A stretch of DNA of 32,000 bases from Pyrodictium occultum (GTDB lineage Archaea > Thermoproteota > Thermoprotei_A > Sulfolobales > Pyrodictiaceae), in contig NZ_LNTB01000001.1 in NCBI RefSeq assembly GCF_001462395.1, positions 840,001 to 872,000 of the forward strand, read 5' to 3'. Position numbers and translations under genes: made by a program. Shown here in pieces: positions 19-9,834 of this stretch. The notes beneath the pieces were generated by a model. It worked only from the letters and a program-made list of their open reading frames with translations. It did not search any database and had not been told where the DNA came from. The stretch's first letter is position 1; each line of letters opens with the position of its first letter.

Positions 19-447
19 GTGATGGTTGTGATGGAGGTAATATTCGTGGAGGAGCACCCGCTCCGGGCCCGGATACTCCAGCTGCTCAGGGAGCATGGCG
101 CGGTATACTATAGCGAGCTCCTGCGCAGCCTTGAGGCCTCGCGGGCTACGCTCAGCTGGCACCTCTACGTGCTGCTGCGGGAGGGGCGTGTCGGGGCCAT
201 CCGGTACCGTAGGTATACCATCTACTACCTCCGGGGCCGCGAGCTCGAGGCCGTCAGGAGTATAGCTGGGAGGGATAGGCTGTTCTGCAGCGTTCTACGC
301 GACCTGGCGGCGGGCGCCCGGCCGGAGGAGGTGGCGGCTCGCTACGGGATAAGCGTCAGGGGGCTAGAGGGCCTGCGGGAGCTCGCCAGGAGGCTCCGGG
401 GCAGGCTCGATGAGGTCTGCGGCGAGGAGCAGAATGTAGGCGAGTGA
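19..447 (+). CDS. winged-helix (ArsR-like) transcriptional regulator
   Basis: 142-aa ORF (GTG 19; ATG alternatives at 22 and 31). The segment RARILQLLREHGAVYYSELLRSLEASRATLSWHLYVLLREGRV has the helix-turn-helix-plus-wing pattern of ArsR/SmtB-type wHTH proteins. It sits directly upstream of the secreted-protein/signal-peptidase operon. The upstream region is cut by the window edge. Confidence 0.6.
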   Translation: MMVVMEVIFVEEHPLRARILQLLREHGAVYYSELLRSLEASRATLSWHLYVLLREGRVGAIRYRRYTIYYLRGRELEAVRSIAGRDRLFCSVLRDLAAGARPEEVAARYGISVRGLEGLRELARRLRGRLDEVCGEEQNVGE

Positions 448-819: not shown

Positions 820-1536
820 GTGAGGCTGCAGGGCAGGCGCAGGGCAACCCTACTAGTCATCCTGGCGGCGGTGGCAGCCCTGTCGGTAGCTAACGCGAGC
901 GTTTTCGCCTACCGGACACTCTATGGCAACGTCAAGATAGCTGATATAACGCAGGGCCAGGACCAGACCAGCATAACGCAGTATGGCCTGGCATGCGTAG
1001 GCTTCTACACGAGCGACTCTATAGAGGATCGGGGTGTGCTGCCCACCGCGGGCACGAACTACAACGCTGCGCCGATAGGGACCACGAGCACCGGCGGCTG
1101 GTACGGCGTGAATGTAGTCCCCGGAGACGTTGCCTGCAGCTGGACAAACACGAGCACCAATAACACCAACACGCTCTACAAGACAGCGACAGTGTATATA
1201 AACGTCACTAACGGTGACTGGTACTTCAAGGACATACTCGGCTTCGGCTACCCCAACATAACGAGCAGCCCAAGCCCCGCCTACGTGACAGTGCGTGTCG
1301 AGGGAGCCCTCAGCAACACCAACATAACTGAAGCTCTACTGAAGATATACGATGCTAGTAGCGGGAACCTCAGAGGGCAGATAGACCTGAAGAACAACGG
1401 CGACTACATCAACTTCACGCTGATGCCCGGCCAGGGAGTCCAGATAGACCTGGATCTCTCCGCCACCGGTGCTGTATCACTCGACAACTTCACAGTGAGG
1501 TTCTACATATCGCCGAGCAGCGAGCAGCCTAGGTAG
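820..1536 (+). CDS. secreted, N-glycosylation-sequon-rich protein with SipW-cognate-like signal peptide (candidate fibre/pilin major subunit)
   Basis: 238-aa ORF from GTG 820, preceded by GGAGG 10 nt upstream. The N terminus has a basic n-region (RLQGRRR), a hydrophobic h-region (ATLLVILAAVAALSV) and the motif ANASVFAYRTLYGNV, which recurs in ORF 3555..5117. The mature part is T/N/S/Y/G-rich and beta-like, with 8 N-x-S/T sequons. G+C is visibly lower than in the flanks. A hairpin plus T5 tract follows. Confidence 0.75.
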   Translation: MRLQGRRRATLLVILAAVAALSVANASVFAYRTLYGNVKIADITQGQDQTSITQYGLACVGFYTSDSIEDRGVLPTAGTNYNAAPIGTTSTGGWYGVNVVPGDVACSWTNTSTNNTNTLYKTATVYINVTNGDWYFKDILGFGYPNITSSPSPAYVTVRVEGALSNTNITEALLKIYDASSGNLRGQIDLKNNGDYINFTLMPGQGVQIDLDLSATGAVSLDNFTVRFYISPSSEQPR

Positions 1537-1675: not shown

Positions 1676-2863
1676 ATGCCGGGGCTTGCCAGGGCTCTGG
1701 GCTACCTAGCGGCTGGTGTGCTGCTAGTCCTCCTCGCGGGTAAGATGCTCCGCCTACCCGTGGCCCTCATGATTGTCTACGGCACCTCCATGGAGCCTAC
1801 GTTTGAGCCCCTGGACCTGGTTCTCGGGGTGGAGCCTTGGCTGGCTGGGGGCGTGGAGAAGGGCGATGTAGTGGTCTGGTGCCTTCCGGGCGACTTCTGG
1901 AGGAGCAGCTGCGTCGTCCACCGCGTGGTGGACCTGGTGAACACGAGCAGGGGGGTGCTGGTGGTCACTAAGGGCGACGCGTTGGATGTCAGCGACCCGC
2001 CGGTCCCCATGGAGAGGGTTGCATATGTTGTAGTCTACCGGGCTCCCCGGGGGCTCGTTCTCCCCCTGCTCGCTGCTGCAGCCGCCGCGGCTGCAGGGTA
2101 CTACTACCTCTACCTCCCCTACGTGACCCACCGCCGCTACGCGCTGGAGCCCGGGGCCCCGGCGCTGCTCATGGTGCTCGCCTACGCCCTCTTCAACATC
2201 GCCTACGTGGGCTCCGGCATGCTAGACGCCTCGCCCGTCATCATCGACCTCCCGAGGGTCTATGGGGAGCATCTATCCTTCAACCTCTCGGCGGGCCTCC
2301 TGACGGTGAAGCTGAGCTACAATACTAGCCTCCACCCCTCCGGGCTCCCGAGCTGCAGCCTCGTGGGCGGGTTCAACGCGTCGCCGGTGGTCGAGGGCTT
2401 CAGCGCCCAGCCCGGGGAGGCGGTGATGGCTATACGCATCCCCCAGGAGGCTTTCATGGAGCTATGGCTCCTGGACACCAGGCGGGTCTCCAGGACAGCG
2501 CTCCCGCCTCCCCCAGCGAAGGTGGCTACCGGGCTCATGCTCCGCTGCAGCCTAGACTTCGACAAGGGGGTTCTCGAGGACACCTACCCCGTAGCCTTCT
2601 CGTGGTCCGAGCCCGTGGTGGAGGCCTCCGGGAAGACCCTGGTCCTCGGGAACCACAACCCGGTGCCAATCCCCGTGGAGGTCGTAGTCTACGCGCCCAG
2701 CCCCGGGGGAGGGTATAGGCTGGTCCACCGGGAGAGGCTCGTCCTAGACCCCTTCACCGTGGAGAGGCTCGACCTCTCCAAGCTCCCCGGGAGCCTCCGC
2801 GCCTACGTCCGCTACACCTTCCTAGGCCACTTTAGGAGCGTAGGGGTGACCCTCCATGGCTAG
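1676..2863 (+). CDS. signal peptidase I, S26B (SipW/Sec11-type, Ser-His) with two extra TM helices and a ~210-aa C-terminal domain
   Basis: 395 aa. An N-terminal TM anchor is followed by the S26B boxes: catalytic Ser in VYGTSMEPTF, catalytic His in CVVHRVVD, and TKGDALDVSDP (compare SipW SGSMEP / HR / KGDNN..D). Then come a poly-Ala/Tyr TM (LLAAAAAAAAGYYYLYL), a second TM (ALLMVLAYALFNIAYVG) and a beta-rich domain of unknown function (residues ~185-395). Confidence 0.85.
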   Translation: MPGLARALGYLAAGVLLVLLAGKMLRLPVALMIVYGTSMEPTFEPLDLVLGVEPWLAGGVEKGDVVVWCLPGDFWRSSCVVHRVVDLVNTSRGVLVVTKGDALDVSDPPVPMERVAYVVVYRAPRGLVLPLLAAAAAAAAGYYYLYLPYVTHRRYALEPGAPALLMVLAYALFNIAYVGSGMLDASPVIIDLPRVYGEHLSFNLSAGLLTVKLSYNTSLHPSGLPSCSLVGGFNASPVVEGFSAQPGEAVMAIRIPQEAFMELWLLDTRRVSRTALPPPPAKVATGLMLRCSLDFDKGVLEDTYPVAFSWSEPVVEASGKTLVLGNHNPVPIPVEVVVYAPSPGGGYRLVHRERLVLDPFTVERLDLSKLPGSLRAYVRYTFLGHFRSVGVTLHG

Positions 2864-3119
2864 CGGCTGGAACGTGTACGAGGCACGGGAGGCAGCCCTC
2901 AGGGCCTCCAGATACTACATGCTGGGCAGAGCCGCCCGGCTGGGAGTTGCAGCGGCCTCCCTGCTGGCCATAGCATCCTCCCTGCTGGTGCTCTTGCTGG
3001 CCCTCACCCCGCTCTACCGGTTCCAGGGGATTATGCTCAGCGGCTGGATCAGGCTCACCGGGTACCAGCTGGCCCTCTACGACGCCCCCTCCGCGTCCCC
3101 GTGCTCGACTCCCTCGTGA
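2856..3119 (+). CDS. small membrane protein (operon member, unknown function)
   Basis: 87 aa. Its ATG overlaps the peptidase stop by 8 nt (ATGGCTAG), suggesting translational coupling. It has one clear TM helix (LGVAAASLLAIASSLLVLLLALTPL) and overlaps the next ORF by 19 nt. It could be the 5' part of a single longer gene with 3101..3535 if a frameshift is present. Confidence 0.45.
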   Translation: MASGWNVYEAREAALRASRYYMLGRAARLGVAAASLLAIASSLLVLLLALTPLYRFQGIMLSGWIRLTGYQLALYDAPSASPCSTPS

Positions 3120-3535
3120 GGCTCTCCTTCACCCTTGTGCTCGGCCCCCTGCTCTCAACAGCCCTCGTCTCCCTAGCCCTGGCCTCCACAATCATGAGCC
3201 CCAAGGTGCCCAGGGTCTACCTCGAGGCGGCGGCGGCCGGCTACGCCGTAGCCGGGCTCACAGTAGCCCTACTCATATCCTTCCTCCGCGTCCTCTTCAG
3301 GGACATAATACCCTCCATACCCCTCGGCGGCCGCTTGCCCACAGCCTACGGGGTCTTCACCCTCCGCGGCTCGAGCGGCTGGTACACCGACGCGGGGCTC
3401 CTAGCCCTACGCCTCTGGAGCCTCTACCCCCTGCTCGCAGCCCTCCTCATAGCCGCCGCCGCGGCCCTCGTATACTACCTGGCACGCTACTACGAGGACC
3501 TCCTCGAAGAACCCCTCGTCTACAATACCAGCTAG
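3101..3535 (+). CDS. polytopic membrane protein (operon member, unknown function)
   Basis: 144 aa from a GTG start. Hydrophobic helices include LSFTLVLGPLLSTALVSLALAS, AAAAGYAVAGLTVALLISFL and LYPLLAALLIAAAAALVYYL, followed by an acidic tail (YYEDLLEEP). A 20-nt gap separates it from the next gene. Confidence 0.55.
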   Translation: MLDSLVRLSFTLVLGPLLSTALVSLALASTIMSPKVPRVYLEAAAAGYAVAGLTVALLISFLRVLFRDIIPSIPLGGRLPTAYGVFTLRGSSGWYTDAGLLALRLWSLYPLLAALLIAAAAALVYYLARYYEDLLEEPLVYNTS

Positions 3536-3554: not shown

Positions 3555-5117
3555 GTGATGCGCGGGGGGCGCAGGAGGCTAGCTCTCGCGGCCCTGGCTC
3601 TAGCCATGCTAGCGCTTGTGGCCGACGCCACGCTCTTCGCTGTCAGGAGCCTGGAGGGGAGCGTCCACGCCGAGCCAACCTGGCTGATATGGTACCAGGA
3701 TCCCGGCACCCCGGGCGTGGTAACGAGCATAGATGGGCTGGAAGCTAGCGCGACCGTGGAGGTGCCGACGGGCATAGTGCTTGAAAAGAGGCACGCAATC
3801 TACTACGACACGTTCGACCAGCAGCCCAACTTCACATCCTCACCATACTGTAGCGGCGTCCTGGAGTGGAACCAGACGGGCCACTACATGGTGGTAAACA
3901 TAAGTGCCCTTGGATGGTATTATGACAGGCGGTATGGTGTTTACCAGCTTCCTAGGTGGTACTGCTACTTCTACCCGTCAAGCCTCGATATAAGCAGCTA
4001 CGTGGCCAACGGTAGCGGGGTCTACGCGGCAGCCATAATGTGGCGTAATGGATACTACTATGTTGGCGATTGGCTGCGCGTGGGTTTCGCATACGCTAAC
4101 GACACCACCTGGGATAGCTACCTCATAGGCCTACGCGATGAAGTTCTCGCTGGTCTTACCGGCGATAATGCTAATGCTACAGCGTATTACTACAATTATT
4201 CTCAGGGGACGTACTACGTCTCGTTGCTGAACGAGTCGTCTCTCCCAAGCGGCGCGTATGGCTTCGAGGGACTATACCACCATAACATGAGTGCCGGTAT
4301 AGACTTCAACGCATGGGATGCGGGGTTCTGGAGCATAGGCCTTACCGTGAACTCTTCGAGCACGCTGCGAGCGCTCAAAGCCTATATAAACGAGTCGTAT
4401 AGGTTCACGCCTAATCGCGTCGGCGTGGGCGTCGACACAGAGTATATCTACGCCTATACCCTCGATGGACTCCCATACATATACTTTGACAACTTTGTTG
4501 TCACTGTTGACGCTTATCCCTGGCTGGTTAATGTCACGGGGCTCTTGCCCGGCTGGAGGGTTGTGCTGCTGAACTCTACCGGCGGGGTGGTGGACGAGGC
4601 TACCGCTGGGAGTGATGGCGTTGCCTCGCTGAGCGTCTGGGGCTACCTGATAGTCCCCAATGCCTCGATAGAGGTCTACGACGACCAGGGCCGGCTGGTG
4701 GCCAGGGCGAGCTTCAGCTACGTTGTCGGCGGCGACGTCTACAGGGTTGAGCGCTTCGCCGGCAGGGTGCTAGACATCTACTCGGACCTCGCCCAGGGCT
4801 TCGTGACGTGGCTCGAGCTCGTGGACACTAACTGCACCCTGCTGGACAGCGGCCATGTCTACATCTTCCTCTACAACTCGTCGGGGGCCGCGGCGGCGCC
4901 CATAGAGGTAGTGGACGGGGTCATAGTGTCCAGCAGCACCGGCCAGGTCTCGGCCGCGCCTACGGGCTCCGGGGGGAGCTGGCTGGCCGGCTGGATATGG
5001 GCCACCGCCTACCTGCCCGGCGGGGCCCGCTGCTTCGTCGACCTTAGGGAGGTGTTTGAGGTGGCCCCCGGCGTCTACACCTACGGCCGCGCCAGGATAG
5101 TCTTTAGCGCCCGGTAG
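3555..5117 (+). CDS. large secreted sequon-rich protein with the same SipW-cognate-like signal peptide (candidate minor/tip/anchor subunit or adhesin)
   Basis: 520 aa (GTG 3555 or ATG 3558) with GGAGGAGGGAG just upstream. The N terminus is RGGRRR + LALAALALAMLALV + ADATLFAVRSLEGSV, parallel to ORF 820..1536. The protein is Y/W/N/G-rich and beta-like, with 16 N-x-S/T sequons. G+C is markedly lower between ~3780 and ~4540. Confidence 0.8.
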   Translation: MMRGGRRRLALAALALAMLALVADATLFAVRSLEGSVHAEPTWLIWYQDPGTPGVVTSIDGLEASATVEVPTGIVLEKRHAIYYDTFDQQPNFTSSPYCSGVLEWNQTGHYMVVNISALGWYYDRRYGVYQLPRWYCYFYPSSLDISSYVANGSGVYAAAIMWRNGYYYVGDWLRVGFAYANDTTWDSYLIGLRDEVLAGLTGDNANATAYYYNYSQGTYYVSLLNESSLPSGAYGFEGLYHHNMSAGIDFNAWDAGFWSIGLTVNSSSTLRALKAYINESYRFTPNRVGVGVDTEYIYAYTLDGLPYIYFDNFVVTVDAYPWLVNVTGLLPGWRVVLLNSTGGVVDEATAGSDGVASLSVWGYLIVPNASIEVYDDQGRLVARASFSYVVGGDVYRVERFAGRVLDIYSDLAQGFVTWLELVDTNCTLLDSGHVYIFLYNSSGAAAAPIEVVDGVIVSSSTGQVSAAPTGSGGSWLAGWIWATAYLPGGARCFVDLREVFEVAPGVYTYGRARIVFSAR

Positions 5118-5126
5118 AGCCCCCCT

Positions 5127-7589
5127 CTAGCCTCCTGCCCTCCTCCTGGCCGCTGCCGCGGCTGCAGCCGCTGCCGCCAGCGCTGCTGCTAGGAGCGCGG
5201 TGCCCGCGCCCGCGTGCGGGAGCGGGCTGGGCTTCTCGGCGGGGCTGGCTTCGGCCAGCCTTGCGGTGAAGGGCGTGGTTATAGGCCTCAACTTCCCGGC
5301 GGGCAGCTCTACCCGGAATAGCCTGGCCAGCTTGGCCTCAACGCTCTCCACGAACTCGCCGCCGTAGATTGCGTCGTAGCGGTGGACAGGCTCCACGGCG
5401 GCCACCGCGCCCCGGGCCCGGGGCCCGAGCATCGCGAGGGGCAGGGTGTAGCTCGTGGAGCCGCCCGGCAGCAGGGTGGCGGCTGTACCGTTGAGGGTTA
5501 GGAGTAGCGGCTCGTCGCCCACGGTCTCCAGCACGTCTAGGCCCCGGAGCACCAGCGTGCCGTTGCCCGCGTCTAGCCAGGCTCCTGCCGCGACCAGGTA
5601 GTAGGCCGTGGCCCTCCCGCCCCACATGGCGACTATCCTGACTAGGCCGGGCGAGTCGAGGGGCAGCCTTATCCTGGCCACGCACTCCCCGCCGCTCCTC
5701 TTGACGCTGGCGTCGAGCCTCCGGAGGCCCAGCAGGTAGACCCCCTCCACCCGGTAGACCGCGTTGGCCGCGATGCTGTCGGGGCAGGCCCCCTGGAAGC
5801 CCAGGGCTACCTCCGTGGAGCCGCCGGGGTTGAAGGCCGGCAGGCTGCCGGAGGCGTAGCGGGCCAGCGGCATCGCGAGCAGCGCCGCCCCGACCCGTAT
5901 GCTCCCCCTGGGCGGCACCAGGCCCGGCGGCTCCCCCTCGCCGCCGGCCCCGCCGCTCCTCCAGGGGTTGGGGGCCGCCGGGTCCCCGAGGAACGCTGCC
6001 TCGCGCAGCACCAGCTCGCCTATGTCCTCCTGGCCGCTGGTGAGGTAGGCCCGGTAGTGGCTGGCGGGCGACACGGCGTAGGCGTTGAGCGCCTGGAGCC
6101 AGGCGTCGCCGAGGGTGTTGGCGGAGCCAAGGCTGCGGAGGAAGAGGAGGAGGGGCGCGTCGGCCCCCGCGAGGCTCACCTCGACGCCCCTGTCGCCGGC
6201 GCTGACCCCGTCTACCATCTCCACGGCTATCCTGGTGTAGCCCAGGTAGGCCACCGCGTCGCCGCGGCCGAGGAGCGCGTCTGCGAGGCTCGGCGGCTTG
6301 AAGGGCGGGTCTACGAGGTCGTAGTCCCAGAACGCTGAGCGGCAGGCGGGGGTGACGAAGACCCCGGGCTCACCCGCCGCGGTGACCTGGTCGCTGCGCA
6401 GCTTCTCCTCGAAGTCGTAGTTCCACAGCCCGCCCGGCACGTAGTCCAGGAGCGCGTTCCCGGCCCCGTGGGTGACCAGATAGTAGAGCCCGTAGTCTCC
6501 CAGGCGGCTGGCGAACCCCGTCCCGGTGTAGCCCCCCAGGCTGAGCATCATGACGTCGGGCTTCAGGGGGAGCCCCGAGGCCTCCTCGAGGGCCTTCACA
6601 ACCGCGGCCTCGCCCACCATGAGGTCGGTGGCGAAGGGGGCTCCGCCGGCTAGGAACGCCTCCCCCTGCCAGCTGCCCCCCTCGACCCACCTCCGCAGGG
6701 CCTCGACGTAGGCCTGGAGCATGCCCCGGTCGGTGAAGGGTATCCTGCCGACCGCGAGCTCCGCCAGCCCGTCGTAGTTGGGGTCTGCGTAGTAGTAGTC
6801 GGTTGGCACGGCCGCCTCGTCGGGGCCCACTAGCTCGCGGAGGATGGGGCTGCAGTAGTAGATGGGGGGCACGTCCCTGGCGCCGCCTATTATGAGCACG
6901 TACCTGGCCCCCTTCCCCGCGGCCTCCCGGAGCATGGATACTATCCTGAGCGCCAGGTCCATGTCGTATTTGGGTCCGTTCTTCCCCGGCCTGCACGCCC
7001 CGGGGGGCTGCGGCGCCGGCTTGTAGCTGGAGCGTATCTCGTCCACGGTCACTATCCTGACGCTGAGGCCCTGGCTCTCGTGGATCCTGGCTATCTCCCC
7101 GGCGGCCTCCAGGGCGGCGGGCTCGCCGGGCACGACTATTATCATCGAGGCTGCGCCGCCCGCGGCCTGGCGCCCGGCCCCCGCCTCCTCCAGCACGACC
7201 TCTACGGTGGAGCCTGGCCTGCCCGGCACCCAGGCGTAGAGCTCCACCCCCCAGGGCCGCTGGACAAGCCTAACACTGGGCCCCAGGCTCTCCGCGGGCG
7301 CGGCTACTGCGAGCCTGCTGAGCCTGCTCCATAGCTCGGGGTCTGGTGTGAAGCTGAGGAGCAGCGGCCTTGGGTTGGCGGCCCTGGGCTCCCAGCCCTG
7401 GACTCCTGCCACCCGGTAGCTGCCGGGTGGGAGCACGGCGTGGATGTAGGCCCAGCCGTCGCCACCCACCCTGGCCGTCAGTACCACCCTGCCCTGCTGG
7501 CCGCCCGTGGCGGCCCCTGCGTGGGCGTGGATTAGCAGGGCGAGCAGCAGGATGAGGAGCGCCGGCGGGAGTAGACGCCTCAAAACCAT
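5127..7589 (-). CDS. membrane-anchored clan CD cysteine peptidase, C25 (gingipain/PorU-like) family
   Basis: The track ORF runs to GTG 7676 but then overlaps rbcL. ATG 7589 gives a classic signal peptide (MVLRRLLPPALLILLLALLIHAHAGA). C25-like motifs are YVLIIGGARDVPPIYY, PTDYYYADPNYDGLAELAVGRIPF, a catalytic-His context YYLVTHGAGN and a catalytic-Cys context GVFVTPACRSAFWD. The C terminus is a poly-Ala TM plus basic tail (GTALLAAALAAAAAAAAAARRRAGG). Confidence 0.8.
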   Translation of the reverse strand: MVLRRLLPPALLILLLALLIHAHAGAATGGQQGRVVLTARVGGDGWAYIHAVLPPGSYRVAGVQGWEPRAANPRPLLLSFTPDPELWSRLSRLAVAAPAESLGPSVRLVQRPWGVELYAWVPGRPGSTVEVVLEEAGAGRQAAGGAASMIIVVPGEPAALEAAGEIARIHESQGLSVRIVTVDEIRSSYKPAPQPPGACRPGKNGPKYDMDLALRIVSMLREAAGKGARYVLIIGGARDVPPIYYCSPILRELVGPDEAAVPTDYYYADPNYDGLAELAVGRIPFTDRGMLQAYVEALRRWVEGGSWQGEAFLAGGAPFATDLMVGEAAVVKALEEASGLPLKPDVMMLSLGGYTGTGFASRLGDYGLYYLVTHGAGNALLDYVPGGLWNYDFEEKLRSDQVTAAGEPGVFVTPACRSAFWDYDLVDPPFKPPSLADALLGRGDAVAYLGYTRIAVEMVDGVSAGDRGVEVSLAGADAPLLLFLRSLGSANTLGDAWLQALNAYAVSPASHYRAYLTSGQEDIGELVLREAAFLGDPAAPNPWRSGGAGGEGEPPGLVPPRGSIRVGAALLAMPLARYASGSLPAFNPGGSTEVALGFQGACPDSIAANAVYRVEGVYLLGLRRLDASVKRSGGECVARIRLPLDSPGLVRIVAMWGGRATAYYLVAAGAWLDAGNGTLVLRGLDVLETVGDEPLLLTLNGTAATLLPGGSTSYTLPLAMLGPRARGAVAAVEPVHRYDAIYGGEFVESVEAKLARLFRVELPAGKLRPITTPFTARLAEASPAEKPSPLPHAGAGTALLAAALAAAAAAAAAARRRAGG

Positions 7590-7617
7590 CCAGCCCCTGG
7601 GGGAAGGGGCCCCGCCC

Positions 7618-7628
7618 AGTATAAGAAG
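7618..7628 (-). promoter_or_regulatory. TATA-like box for the C25 peptidase gene
   Basis: The minus strand reads CTTCTTATACT, ~30-40 nt upstream of ATG 7589, in the 62-nt gap after the rbcL stop. This supports the shorter start at 7589 with a very short leader. Confidence 0.35.
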
Positions 7629-7651
7629 GGGGCGCCGGCCTGCAGCGGGGG

Positions 7652-8977
7652 CTAGACGGGGCGGGTGTGGCCCCACTTCTCCAGCGCCCGGGCCAGCTCG
7701 CGGTGCTTCTCGGCATACTCCTCGAGGGGCACGCCCTCCACAGCAGCCTCCACCGCCTGCCTCATCGCCGCCGCGCCCGCCCTGGGGCCGTCGGGGTGGC
7801 CTATGACGCCGCCGCCCGCCTGGATGATTATGTCCAGGCCCAGGCTCCTTATGACGGGCTCGATGTTGCCCGGGTGGAGGCCGCCGCTGGAGACGGGGAG
7901 CACCGGCCGGAGCCCGGCCCAGTCCTGCTCCATGTGGATGATGTCGCCCTCCCGTGGCTTGTAGACGGGCTCCCGGAGCACGCGGGCGTACTCGACCACC
8001 TCCCCGGCCCGGGCCTCCATCTTGCCGACGCCGGGCGTGCCCACGTGGAGGTGGTCGAGCCCCGCCAGCCTCCCGAGCTTCGCCACCACGAACATGGAGA
8101 CGCCGTGCCGGGGGTTCCGGGTGAACGCGGCGTGGAAGGCGCGGTGCCCGTGGATCGCTAGCCCGTATTCCCCGGCTAGCTCCCTGGCGTGCTGGAGCGC
8201 GGCCCAGCCGGCGGTGAGGAAGTCTATCATTATGAATTTGTTGCCATAGTCCGCGACCAGCTTGATCCTCCGCTCCATCTCCTTCACTGGCGCGGTCACG
8301 TTGGCCAGGTAGCCCTTCCTCTCCCCCGTCTCCTTCTCAGCCCTCTCGACGGCCTTCATCACCTCCCGGAGCCTTGCCTCGAACCTGCAGAGCCGCTGGC
8401 CGGCAACATTCTCGTCATCCTTCACGAGGTCCACCCCGCCCGCGAGTATCTCGTAGGCCGTCCTCCCATACTCCTCGGGGGTGTACCCCATCTTCGGCTT
8501 GGGCACAGTGGCTAGGATGGGGCGGCTCTCGACGCCGAGTATCTTCCTCACGCCCTCTACCCCGTGGCCGGGGCCCGGGAAGCTGGCGACGTAGCCGCGG
8601 GGGAGCCTTATCTCCTCTAGCCGCAGGGCCTCGACAGCCCTCATGCCGAAAACGTTGCCCATGACGCTGCTTGCCAGGTTCGGTATACTCCCCTCCTCGA
8701 AGAGCTCCGAGGGGTAGGCTATCCAGACGAGCCAGCTCCCATCCCCCAGGCTGTGGAACCGGTATGCCCTGGCGCGGAGCCGGTCGTAGAGGCTCGGCTT
8801 AACGCTAAGCGTGGTCCAGGTCCCCACGCTGCTCTCAGCCGCCACCCGGGCGGCGGCGTCGCGCACGCTGAGCCCCTCAGCCGGCGCGACGCGGAACACG
8901 GCGACGAGGTCCCCGGGGCCGGGCTCGTAGCCCTCATCCACGAACTCCTGGTAAGCGTCGCGCGGCACGCTGGGCAC
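7652..8977 (-). CDS. rbcL: ribulose-1,5-bisphosphate carboxylase/oxygenase large subunit, form III
   Basis: RbcL motifs are GTWTTL, VPKPKMGY (carbamylated Lys region), GGVDLVKDDEN, GLAIHGHRAFHAAFTRNP, LHVGTPG, SSGGLHPG and QAGGGVIGHPDG. The C terminus ELARALEKWGHTRPV closely resembles Thermococcus kodakarensis RbcL as I recall it. The longest ORF opens at GTG 9049 (465 aa). I place the start at in-frame GTG 8977 (441 aa), which puts FVDEGYEP at residues 12-19 as in the characterised archaeal enzyme. GTG 9049 is only ~10 nt downstream of a TATA-like TTTATGA (9056-9062, minus strand). The start remains uncertain. Confidence 0.93.
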   Translation of the reverse strand: MPSVPRDAYQEFVDEGYEPGPGDLVAVFRVAPAEGLSVRDAAARVAAESSVGTWTTLSVKPSLYDRLRARAYRFHSLGDGSWLVWIAYPSELFEEGSIPNLASSVMGNVFGMRAVEALRLEEIRLPRGYVASFPGPGHGVEGVRKILGVESRPILATVPKPKMGYTPEEYGRTAYEILAGGVDLVKDDENVAGQRLCRFEARLREVMKAVERAEKETGERKGYLANVTAPVKEMERRIKLVADYGNKFIMIDFLTAGWAALQHARELAGEYGLAIHGHRAFHAAFTRNPRHGVSMFVVAKLGRLAGLDHLHVGTPGVGKMEARAGEVVEYARVLREPVYKPREGDIIHMEQDWAGLRPVLPVSSGGLHPGNIEPVIRSLGLDIIIQAGGGVIGHPDGPRAGAAAMRQAVEAAVEGVPLEEYAEKHRELARALEKWGHTRPV

Positions 8978-9196
8978 CCACGCACGTACGCTCTGCTCCC
9001 TGCATGGTGTAGGAGGAGCCCGGGGGGCTCCACGTAGAGCCGGCACCACGAGCCCTCATAAACCCTGGCAGAAGCCTGCCCGTGCTACGGGCTCATCCCG
9101 GGGTATTAGCGCGGCCATGGAGCAGGCCTCTTGCTCCAAGGCCATGTAGCTTTAAAACCCCGGCCCCTGCTAGCAGAGGGCGGAGGATAGAGGGCA

Positions 9197-9352
9197 ATGC
9201 CTGGTATGGGGGCGCGCCGCCTCCACGTACTCGCGCTGTTCCTCTCCATAACCGGTGCCCTAGCCTTCGCGCTCGAGAACAACCTCGCGGGCGCTCTCCT
9301 CGCCGCGCTGTTCGCGGTGCAGAGCGTCCTGTCCCTCTTCTCGGGCAGGTAG
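9197..9352 (+). CDS. small two-helix membrane protein (51 aa, below the ORF-track cutoff)
   Basis: Hand translation from ATG 9197 to TAG 9350-9352 gives MPGMGARRLHVLALFLSITGALAFALENNLAGALLAALFAVQSVLSLFSGR. That is two hydrophobic helices after a basic N terminus. TTTAAAA (9151-9157) lies 40 nt upstream. The ORF ends 4 nt before the convergent gene 9356..9763. No homology evidence is available. Confidence 0.35.
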   Translation: MPGMGARRLHVLALFLSITGALAFALENNLAGALLAALFAVQSVLSLFSGR

Positions 9353-9355
9353 CCT

Positions 9356-9763
9356 CTAGGCCATCTTCATCAGCACCGGCGCCAGTATCCTCCGGGCCTC
9401 CGCCTCCGCGTCCCCCTCCCCGTAGCTGCGGAACCGGTAGCGCCTGCCCAGCTCCCTCAGTATCTCGGGGCCGGGCTCGAGGACCCCCATCTCGACTAGC
9501 TCCTGCAGCAGGTCGGCCGCCAGGGCGGCGGTGTACTGGGCGCTCTCCACACCCCAGCTGATCTCGCCCCTTGTTTCCTCTATTATCCTCCTAGCCTCCT
9601 CGGCCACGCTCGCCGGGGTTATGGGCTTCTCCTTCTCCCGCAGCTTAAGCGCCGCGACGAGGGTTAGGAGAAGCTTCCCCCTCCTGCCCGCCTCCTGGAA
9701 GTCCTTTAGGAGCCGCTGCAGCGCCTCTCTCAGCTCGGCTATGGCCCTCTTGCCCGCCGTCAT
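9356..9763 (-). CDS. hypothetical protein (helical, charged)
   Basis: 135-aa ORF with coding-like composition and no off-frame-type R/P/G bias (MTAGKRAIAELREALQRLLKDFQEAGRRGK...). I recognise no family. Confidence 0.65.
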   Translation of the reverse strand: MTAGKRAIAELREALQRLLKDFQEAGRRGKLLLTLVAALKLREKEKPITPASVAEEARRIIEETRGEISWGVESAQYTAALAADLLQELVEMGVLEPGPEILRELGRRYRFRSYGEGDAEAEARRILAPVLMKMA

Positions 9764-9834
9764 CCCGGCGCCCCGGGGGAGGAGGGCCTAGAGGGTGGGT
9801 GAGAGTAATAACGTGGCGCCCTCAGCCCCTGGAG

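Follow-up and report, generated by a model that had tools for sequence, protein, structure and literature searches.

A shared N-terminal motif in a pilin and a lectin-type secreted protein of Pyrodictium occultum as a probable signal peptidase I site and donor strand

The stretch of the Pyrodictium occultum genome analysed here (contig NZ_LNTB01000001.1, positions 840,001 to 872,000; 32,000 nucleotides, hereafter the window, numbered from its first letter) contains four adjacent genes that appear to form a pilus cassette, encoding a major pilin, a two-domain S26 signal peptidase, a small membrane protein and a lectin-type large subunit. A first-pass annotation of the window had pointed out a near-identical 15-residue motif in the two secreted proteins, that is, the pilin (238 amino acids, open reading frame (ORF) 820..1536, forward strand) and the large protein (520 amino acids, ORF 3555..5117, forward strand). 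This likeness was upheld by our analysis, and the motif is kept in the orthologues of both proteins. It probably comprises a signal peptidase I site and, after it, an N-terminal donor strand that stays on the mature protein; the pilins and the lectin-type adhesin would have this strand in common and dock in the same pilin groove. The cassette is most likely an unannotated archaeal family built on a known donor-strand principle.

The motif copy of the pilin, ANASVFAYRTLYGNV (translation of 889-933), corresponds to residues 24-38, and that of the large protein, ADATLFAVRSLEGSV (translation of 3621-3665), to residues 23-37. Eight of the 15 positions are identical and five further ones are conservative. 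Each copy is preceded by GRRR and a hydrophobic stretch of 15 residues in the pilin and 14 in the large protein, in agreement with the like placement after the basic n-region described previously, and the consensus pattern proposed in the first-pass annotation matched at just these two places in a six-frame translation of the window. The BLOSUM62 score between ANASVFAYRTLYGNV and ADATLFAVRSLEGSV is 39, a value matched by no other 15-mer among 11,211 taken from ORFs of the window with 150 or more amino acids and by none of 62,696 15-mers from the non-cassette ORFs of related loci. The remainder of the two proteins is dissimilar, as had also been stated: BLASTP of one against the other gave a best E-value of 0.42, for a match that was the N-terminus itself, and the predicted folds do not resemble each other. 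A recent gene conversion of the two 5' ends was ruled out, since the motif DNA is only ~60% identical between both genes and the differences include synonymous ones, which indicates selection on the peptide. The N-glycosylation sequon N-A-(S/T) likewise fails to account for the shared motif, since its N is replaced by Y or D in the large proteins. In the pilin the triplet encoded at 892-900 does form this sequon, spanning the predicted cut, and it has an equivalent in 54 of 59 pilins.

The N-terminal segments of 59 distinct pilins and 22 large proteins were gathered in a family profile, in which conservation spans positions -3 to +14 of the predicted cut in both protein classes. Position -3 is V or A (in the large proteins A or V, and Y once), position -2 is N in 54/59 pilins, against Y in the large proteins (D in that of the window), and position -1 is A, G or S, with A, G, S or Q in the large proteins. 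Beyond the cut the profile reads T/S/A at +1, F/Y at +3, Y at +5, R at +6, W at +7 (T/S in the clade of the window), M/L/I at +8, G at +10, and V/I at both +12 and +14; from +1 to +14 it is the same in the large proteins as in the pilins. Residues N25, F29, T33, L34, G36 and V38 are invariant among the pilin orthologues, and R31 is nearly invariant among those of the large protein. The two classes also vary together. Cognate pilin/large pairs scored 36.9 BLOSUM units against 29.8 for non-cognate pairs (pairing-shuffle p = 1.2e-4), and at +7 the clade of the window has T in the pilin and S or N in the large protein, as against W in the pilin and W or Y in the large protein at most other loci. 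A fit to the same groove would explain why the two strands are alike and change together between lineages. When a hidden Markov model (HMM) built from the pilin motif was run against 1,068 ORFs, pilin fragments ranked first, followed by large-type proteins with E-values down to 2e-7, so that the best matches outside the major pilins were mostly cassette proteins. The large protein of the window itself scored 5 bits (E = 0.9).

For the pilin, a Sec signal peptide is predicted at M1-A26 (820..897), with a basic n-region, a 15-residue h-region and a cut at A24-N25-A26 / S27, and the predicted donor strand, the retained part of the motif, covers S27-I40 (SVFAYRTLYGNVKI, 898..939). Export through the twin-arginine (Tat) pathway was discarded, since the RRR of the window proteins is replaced by KHK, EKR, EKK or NRK in orthologues; the lack of a conserved RR pair argues for Sec-type export. 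The AlphaFold2 (AF2) monomer model of the pilin has a predicted local distance difference test score (pLDDT) of 73.6 and suggests an AbpA/TasA-superfamily-like jelly-roll. Its best Foldseek match in the PDB was AbpA (7UEG_A, E = 5.8e-6, probability 1.0, template-modelling (TM) scores 0.47/0.60, 11% identity), followed by the cannula-like Hyper2 tube 9bab (3e-3) and by chaperone-usher pilins. The modelled core is thus a jelly-roll/beta-sandwich like that of the solved members of the TasA superfamily, and membership is not reflected in the sequence. No Pfam or NCBIfam family was assigned to the pilin, Pfam at E <= 5 gave no match for 25 members of its family or for the distant HMM matches P0068-P0087, and a PDB sequence search with the pilin profile returned nothing better than E = 0.17, the matches being unrelated SMC proteins. 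In the model the motif region is unstructured, with pLDDT <50 at residues 10-31 and ~50 up to residue 40.

The large protein consists of a donor-strand-like peptide, a legume-lectin/ConA-like domain and beta-sandwich domains. Its signal peptide is predicted at M1-A25 (3555..3629), with a cut at A23-D24-A25 / T26, and its predicted donor strand at T26-A39 (TLFAVRSLEGSVHA, 3630..3671), which contains the mature part of the second motif copy. The AF2 monomer model reached a pLDDT of 84, and residues 21-40, the motif included, are again unstructured (pLDDT <50). Low values at the motif in both monomers would be normal for a strand that pairs with a different subunit. Foldseek matches of this model included the binding region of the L-lectin adhesin SraP (2.5e-8), legume lectins and the fimbrial adhesin CfaE, and orthologues were found in Desulfurococcaceae, Ignisphaera and Infirmifilum. 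The large protein is accordingly a putative tip adhesin or assembly initiator. Some cassettes hold a second motif-bearing large type (...VYASVFSTRYIGANVKVANIQLVNIDP...), which replaces the lectin-type protein or stands beside it (loci L033 8723-10252, L064 3470-5566, L020 10474-10857 and L052 1150-1440; L-numbers denote related loci), so the tip component appears to be exchangeable.

These observations are compatible with the following mechanism. The first three motif residues, A-x-A, would be the -3/-1 site where a Sec signal peptide is cleaved, giving predicted mature N-termini at S27 (pilin) and T26 (large protein). The remainder up to ~+14, (S/T)-x-F-A-x-R-(T/S)-L-x-G-x-V-x-(I/V), would stay on the mature proteins as the donor strand, and that of each pilin would enter the open jelly-roll groove of a neighbouring pilin. 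The 520-amino-acid adhesin, by means of the same strand, would plug the groove of the first pilin and so come to lie at one end of the fibre, where it might nucleate assembly; this tip or initiator role is modelled on the proposals made for TapA with TasA and for TafC with TafE/TafA. The peptidase encoded between the pilin and the large protein would most likely free the strand in this organism. A retained N-terminal strand for donor-strand polymerisation had been offered in the first-pass annotation as the alternative to peptidase recognition, and it is now the better supported of the two, given the AbpA-like fold, the conservation to +14, the unstructured motif in the monomer models and the precedents of TapA/TasA and TafC/TafA.

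Close homologues of the pilin are few (Stetteria hydrogenophila, Staphylothermus hellenicus, a Pyrodictium metagenome-assembled genome (MAG) and metagenomes). A pilin profile search of 1.8 billion representatives returned 62 proteins at E <= 1e-3 and 24 at E <= 1e-10, and a scan of genome contigs with a narrow pilin alignment found 1 locus. Genomic contexts and 53 metagenome loci were searched with HMMs of the four cassette proteins. The gene order (minor pilin)-pilin-peptidase-membrane protein-large protein recurred in Desulfurococcales genomes and hot-spring metagenomes. Among the 18 informative loci, defined as non-redundant ones whose sequence continues for 1.2 kb or more downstream of the pilin, a peptidase homologue was present beside the motif-bearing pilin in every case, which is the co-occurrence that the first-pass annotation had proposed to look for. 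Many loci also carry, just upstream of the major pilin, a divergent pilin paralogue of ~175-200 amino acids that the window lacks (L013 791-1360, L020 7280-7858, L024 7292-7858, L009 6555-7097 and others). The motif of this minor pilin is related (for example LVNPWVYSFKP) and has Pro in place of the -1 Ala of the major pilins. Since Pro at -1 should disfavour cleavage by signal peptidase I, the minor pilin may be an uncleaved, membrane-anchored base subunit.

The peptidase gene (1676..2863, forward strand) encodes a 395-amino-acid homologue of S26 (SipW/endoplasmic reticulum (ER)-type) signal peptidase I, composed of a catalytic domain, hydrophobic segments and a conserved ~215-amino-acid C-terminal domain. 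It scored 46.6 bits with TIGR02228, under the cutoff of 51.85, matched the SipW model at E = 4e-5 and keeps the catalytic motifs GTSMEP (Ser), CVVHR (His) and KGD (Asp). A word-based protein search with it gave 2 matches only, and its orthologues were drawn from the related loci. Ser, His and Asp are kept, together with a TIGR02228 match, in 8 of the 18 informative loci (the window, L001, L003, L008, L011, L023, L033 and L037). In the other ten (L009, L020, L022, L042, L044, L045, L048, L049, L051 and L057) all three residues are lost and TIGR02228 is not matched, yet homology is still plain in the N-domain, and the C-terminal domain has been well preserved. Examples of these dead homologues lie at L009 7881-8909, L044 7522-8721, L045 779-1888 and L020 8611-9780. 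The pilins of all ten loci retain the motif (VNATVYAYRWMTGTV...), which indicates that it is not conserved merely as a specificity determinant of a neighbouring active site. The term "catalytically inactive" is absent from the donor-strand papers that a full-text search returned, and we accordingly found no published description of such a dead homologue. A pilin-like C-domain of the peptidase, as reported for TafD, was unsupported by sequence, as hhalign of the peptidase-family profile against the pilin profile gave no similarity (probability 1%). In L008, from the Pyrodictium MAG, an extra signal peptidase I of 162 amino acids with intact catalytic motifs (9336-9824) is encoded directly upstream of the pilin, besides the downstream two-domain homologue of 395 amino acids.

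Because the extracellular C-terminal domain is kept in 18/18 loci and the catalytic residues are lost in 10, it is conceivable, although somewhat unlikely, that the S26-like protein is primarily a pilus-assembly factor and not a processing enzyme. Its task would then be to keep hold of the N-terminal strand while the subunits are tethered to the membrane, or to pass that strand on, and, where active, it might couple cleavage to strand insertion. Such a chaperone- or usher-like role on a signal-peptidase scaffold, to which we give the same tentative standing, would make the motif a ligand as well as a donor strand.

One question is whether the motif serves cleavage and not assembly. The first-pass annotation had seen in it the hallmark of substrates of a dedicated peptidase, and part of this stands: A-x-A forms a -3/-1 site and the window copy of the peptidase keeps Ser, His and Asp. 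A motif that acts mainly as a recognition determinant, in the manner of SipW-like substrate marking, would also agree with a peptidase gene placed between both motif genes and accompanying the pilin in all informative loci, with the high conservation of positions -3, -2 (the N of the pilins) and -1, and with the dependence of TafA processing on TafD (PMC11821415). We nevertheless consider this explanation improbable. The motif persists in the 10 loci whose homologue has lost Ser, His, Asp and the TIGR02228 match, position -2 differs by class (N in pilins, Y in large proteins), and conservation is strongest from +3 to +14, positions that lie beyond the subsites usual for signal peptidase I among the S26 enzymes. 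In NCBIfam, SipW-cognate signal-peptide models of the TIGR04088 type gave no match at E <= 10 with the 51-residue N-termini of both proteins or at E <= 1 with the full proteins.

A motif that is never released from its hydrophobic segment, and forms a juxtamembrane stalk contacting the membrane protein or the peptidase-like C-terminal domain, is less probable still. Cleavage is here a prediction, the minor pilins have N-P-W where the major pilins have N-A-T, with a Pro that would disfavour signal peptidase I, and the pseudo-peptidases point to binding, not cutting. However, canonical small residues occupy -3 and -1 in the major pilins and in most large proteins, AbpA, structurally the closest solved pilin, is cut at an equivalent A-x-A/T (PMC9245690), and an AbpA-like subunit with a lectin adhesin is more in keeping with a released than with a membrane-bound fibre. 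Hardly credible, finally, is a similarity by chance or by a generic cleavage-region bias of a high-GC, Ala-rich proteome, even though BLASTP of the pair gives no better than E = 0.42, A-x-A by itself is generic and the large protein of the window scores poorly with the pilin-motif HMM. Against it stand the alignment score, unmatched in the window and in the non-cassette 15-mers, and the retention of the motif across dozens of loci, in the orthologues of either protein as well as in the minor pilins. The signal peptide of a C25 peptidase, the sole other secreted protein in the window, lacks the motif. This, together with the cassette proteins that dominate the motif-HMM matches, speaks against a motif common to unrelated secreted proteins, the finding by which the first-pass annotation would have been overturned.

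Several points weigh against a cleavage site joined to a donor strand, the reading we prefer. Insertion of the strand into the groove is argued from monomer models, conservation to +14 and the co-variation of cognate pairs, all of them indirect, and the co-variation reflects few clade-level changes, its statistic being uncorrected for phylogeny. The predicted cleavage site follows from the -3/-1 rule, and at -1 a few of the orthologues of the large protein carry Q or P. The pilin model, built from 10 sequences, is of moderate quality, as is its match to AbpA at the TM scores and identity given above, and no sequence link joins the pilin to Peptidase_M73 (PF12389)/TasA, DUF1102 or any PDB chain. 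The large protein has no recognised pilin domain, and its putative place in the fibre is assigned by analogy.

The cassette was compared with known donor-strand systems. Within the Bacillus subtilis operon tapA-sipW-tasA, which includes an ER-type signal peptidase I dedicated to it, the N-terminus of TapA is similar to the donor strand of TasA and has been modelled to donate the first strand (PMC9674648). A statement in the same article, citing Terra et al. 2012, attributes a second, non-catalytic role to SipW (PMC9674648). The cassette shares with this system an accessory protein with a pilin-like N-terminus and an ER-type signal peptidase I gene. Unlike it, the host is archaeal, the pilin has no detectable TasA/Peptidase_M73 similarity and no SipW-cognate signal-peptide match, the accessory protein is a lectin-type adhesin where TapA is a beta-sandwich, the peptidase has a large C-terminal domain that SipW lacks, and the strand has an aromatic residue at +3/+5 and a basic one at +6 in place of the A-F-N-D of TasA.

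A second such system is that of the haloarchaeal Tat-fimbriae (Tafi, tafA-G), in which the tip protein TafC has a ConA/laminin-G-like domain and donates an N-terminal strand (PMC11821415, PMC12337348), and in which TafD is a two-domain peptidase with four transmembrane helices and an immunoglobulin-like, beta-rich C-domain, whose deletion blocks TafA processing (PMC11821415). The Tafi cluster includes pilins and a transcription factor, and taf-like clusters are present in Thermococcales and Archaeoglobales (PMC11821415, PMC12337348). As in Tafi, the cassette combines a pilin, a two-domain peptidase and a lectin-type putative tip protein with a pilin-like N-terminal motif. The model of the 520-amino-acid protein matches L-type lectins and lectin-bearing adhesins and carries the motif, as a Tafi tip protein would, and its position at the tip is suggested on these grounds. 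The peptidase may resemble TafD in architecture, with an S26 domain, hydrophobic segments and the ~215-amino-acid C-terminal domain. It differs from Tafi in that the pilins are not DUF1102/TafA-like by sequence and are nearest to AbpA by fold, no TafG is recognisable, and export is probably by Sec and not by Tat; Pfam gave no match to DUF5305 (TafG) or DUF1102 for any cassette protein. By analogy, the cassette may work like the Tafi or TasA system even though DUF5305/TafG and DUF1102 are missing.

AbpA of Pyrobaculum calidifontis, the best structural match of the pilin, has a Sec signal, a mature N-terminus (AMA/TL) seen by cryo-electron microscopy, as well as an N-terminal donor strand; AbpB, a large secreted beta-rich protein encoded downstream, was proposed as the donor of the first strand, and no dedicated peptidase was found for this ABP locus in the original paper (PMC9245690). 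The predicted A-x-A cut and the large secreted protein downstream are common to both, whereas the cassette has a dedicated peptidase, AbpB is TapA-like and not lectin-like, the identity between the pilins is ~11%, and the lineages differ (Desulfurococcales here, Thermoproteales and Thermofilales for ABP). According to the Tafi paper, the crenarchaeal ABP and thread loci have no tafD or tafG homologues (PMC11821415), in contrast to this crenarchaeal cassette with its TafD-like gene. In the AbpX-type TasA-superfamily loci of Pyrodictium abyssi and Zestosphaera, major, minor and tip subunits are predicted to co-assemble by donor strands; these loci also encode transcription factors, membrane proteins of accessory function and a signal peptidase I (10.64898/2026.01.04.697558). 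The strands of AbpX bind calcium, and in them +2 is aromatic and +4 acidic, and the associated peptidase has ten transmembrane helices (10.64898/2026.01.04.697558), unlike the strand described here, which has F(+3)-x-Y-R, and unlike the peptidase, which is of a different architecture.

If correct, this interpretation would give a function to hypothetical proteins of Desulfurococcales, the cultured species Staphylothermus hellenicus and Stetteria hydrogenophila among them, and of related hot-spring metagenome lineages: they would build a surface fibre of the donor-strand kind, tipped by a lectin. A crenarchaeal AbpA-like pilin would be paired with a TafD-like two-domain peptidase, which joins systems that the Tafi paper had separated by gene content. 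The predicted mature N-termini S27 and T26, and the need of the strand for polymerisation, are testable. The dead peptidase homologue in more than half of the related cassettes is the likeliest source of new insight into the chaperone-free assembly of archaeal fibres.

The remaining cassette gene (2856..3535, forward strand) encodes a conserved membrane protein, 226-232 amino acids long in the relatives. The window copy is broken up into the ORFs 2856..3119 and 3101..3535, both of which were matched by the HMM of the family. Compared with the otherwise identical gene of L065, an intact ORF of 226 amino acids, the window shows a 1-nucleotide deletion in a C-run near 3084, which is either a homopolymer sequencing or assembly error or a strain-specific frameshift. 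Directly upstream of the cassette, an ArsR-type winged-helix regulator is encoded at 19..447 on the forward strand (PF12840 HTH_20, 1.1e-8; NF033788). It might regulate the cassette; the gene at this position differs in the relatives, and transcription factors have been found with the Tafi and AbpX loci (PMC11821415; 10.64898/2026.01.04.697558). The C25 peptidase mentioned above (Peptidase_C25, gingipain-type, 849 amino acids, 5127-7676, reverse strand, E = 9.8e-26) is convergent with the cassette, which it adjoins in the near-identical contig L065 and not in Stetteria or Staphylothermus. Its C-terminal segment, hydrophobic, rich in Ala and closed by RRRAGG, looks like a membrane anchor or a sorting signal. 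The gene adjoining it is a RuBisCO large-subunit ORF of 465 amino acids (7652-9049, reverse strand), which points, along with the GC content of 62-73% and the Stetteria, Staphylothermus and Pyrodictium relatives, to a hyperthermophile of Desulfurococcales type as the source; its counterpart in L065 contains the Pfam domains RuBisCO_large_N and RuBisCO_large.

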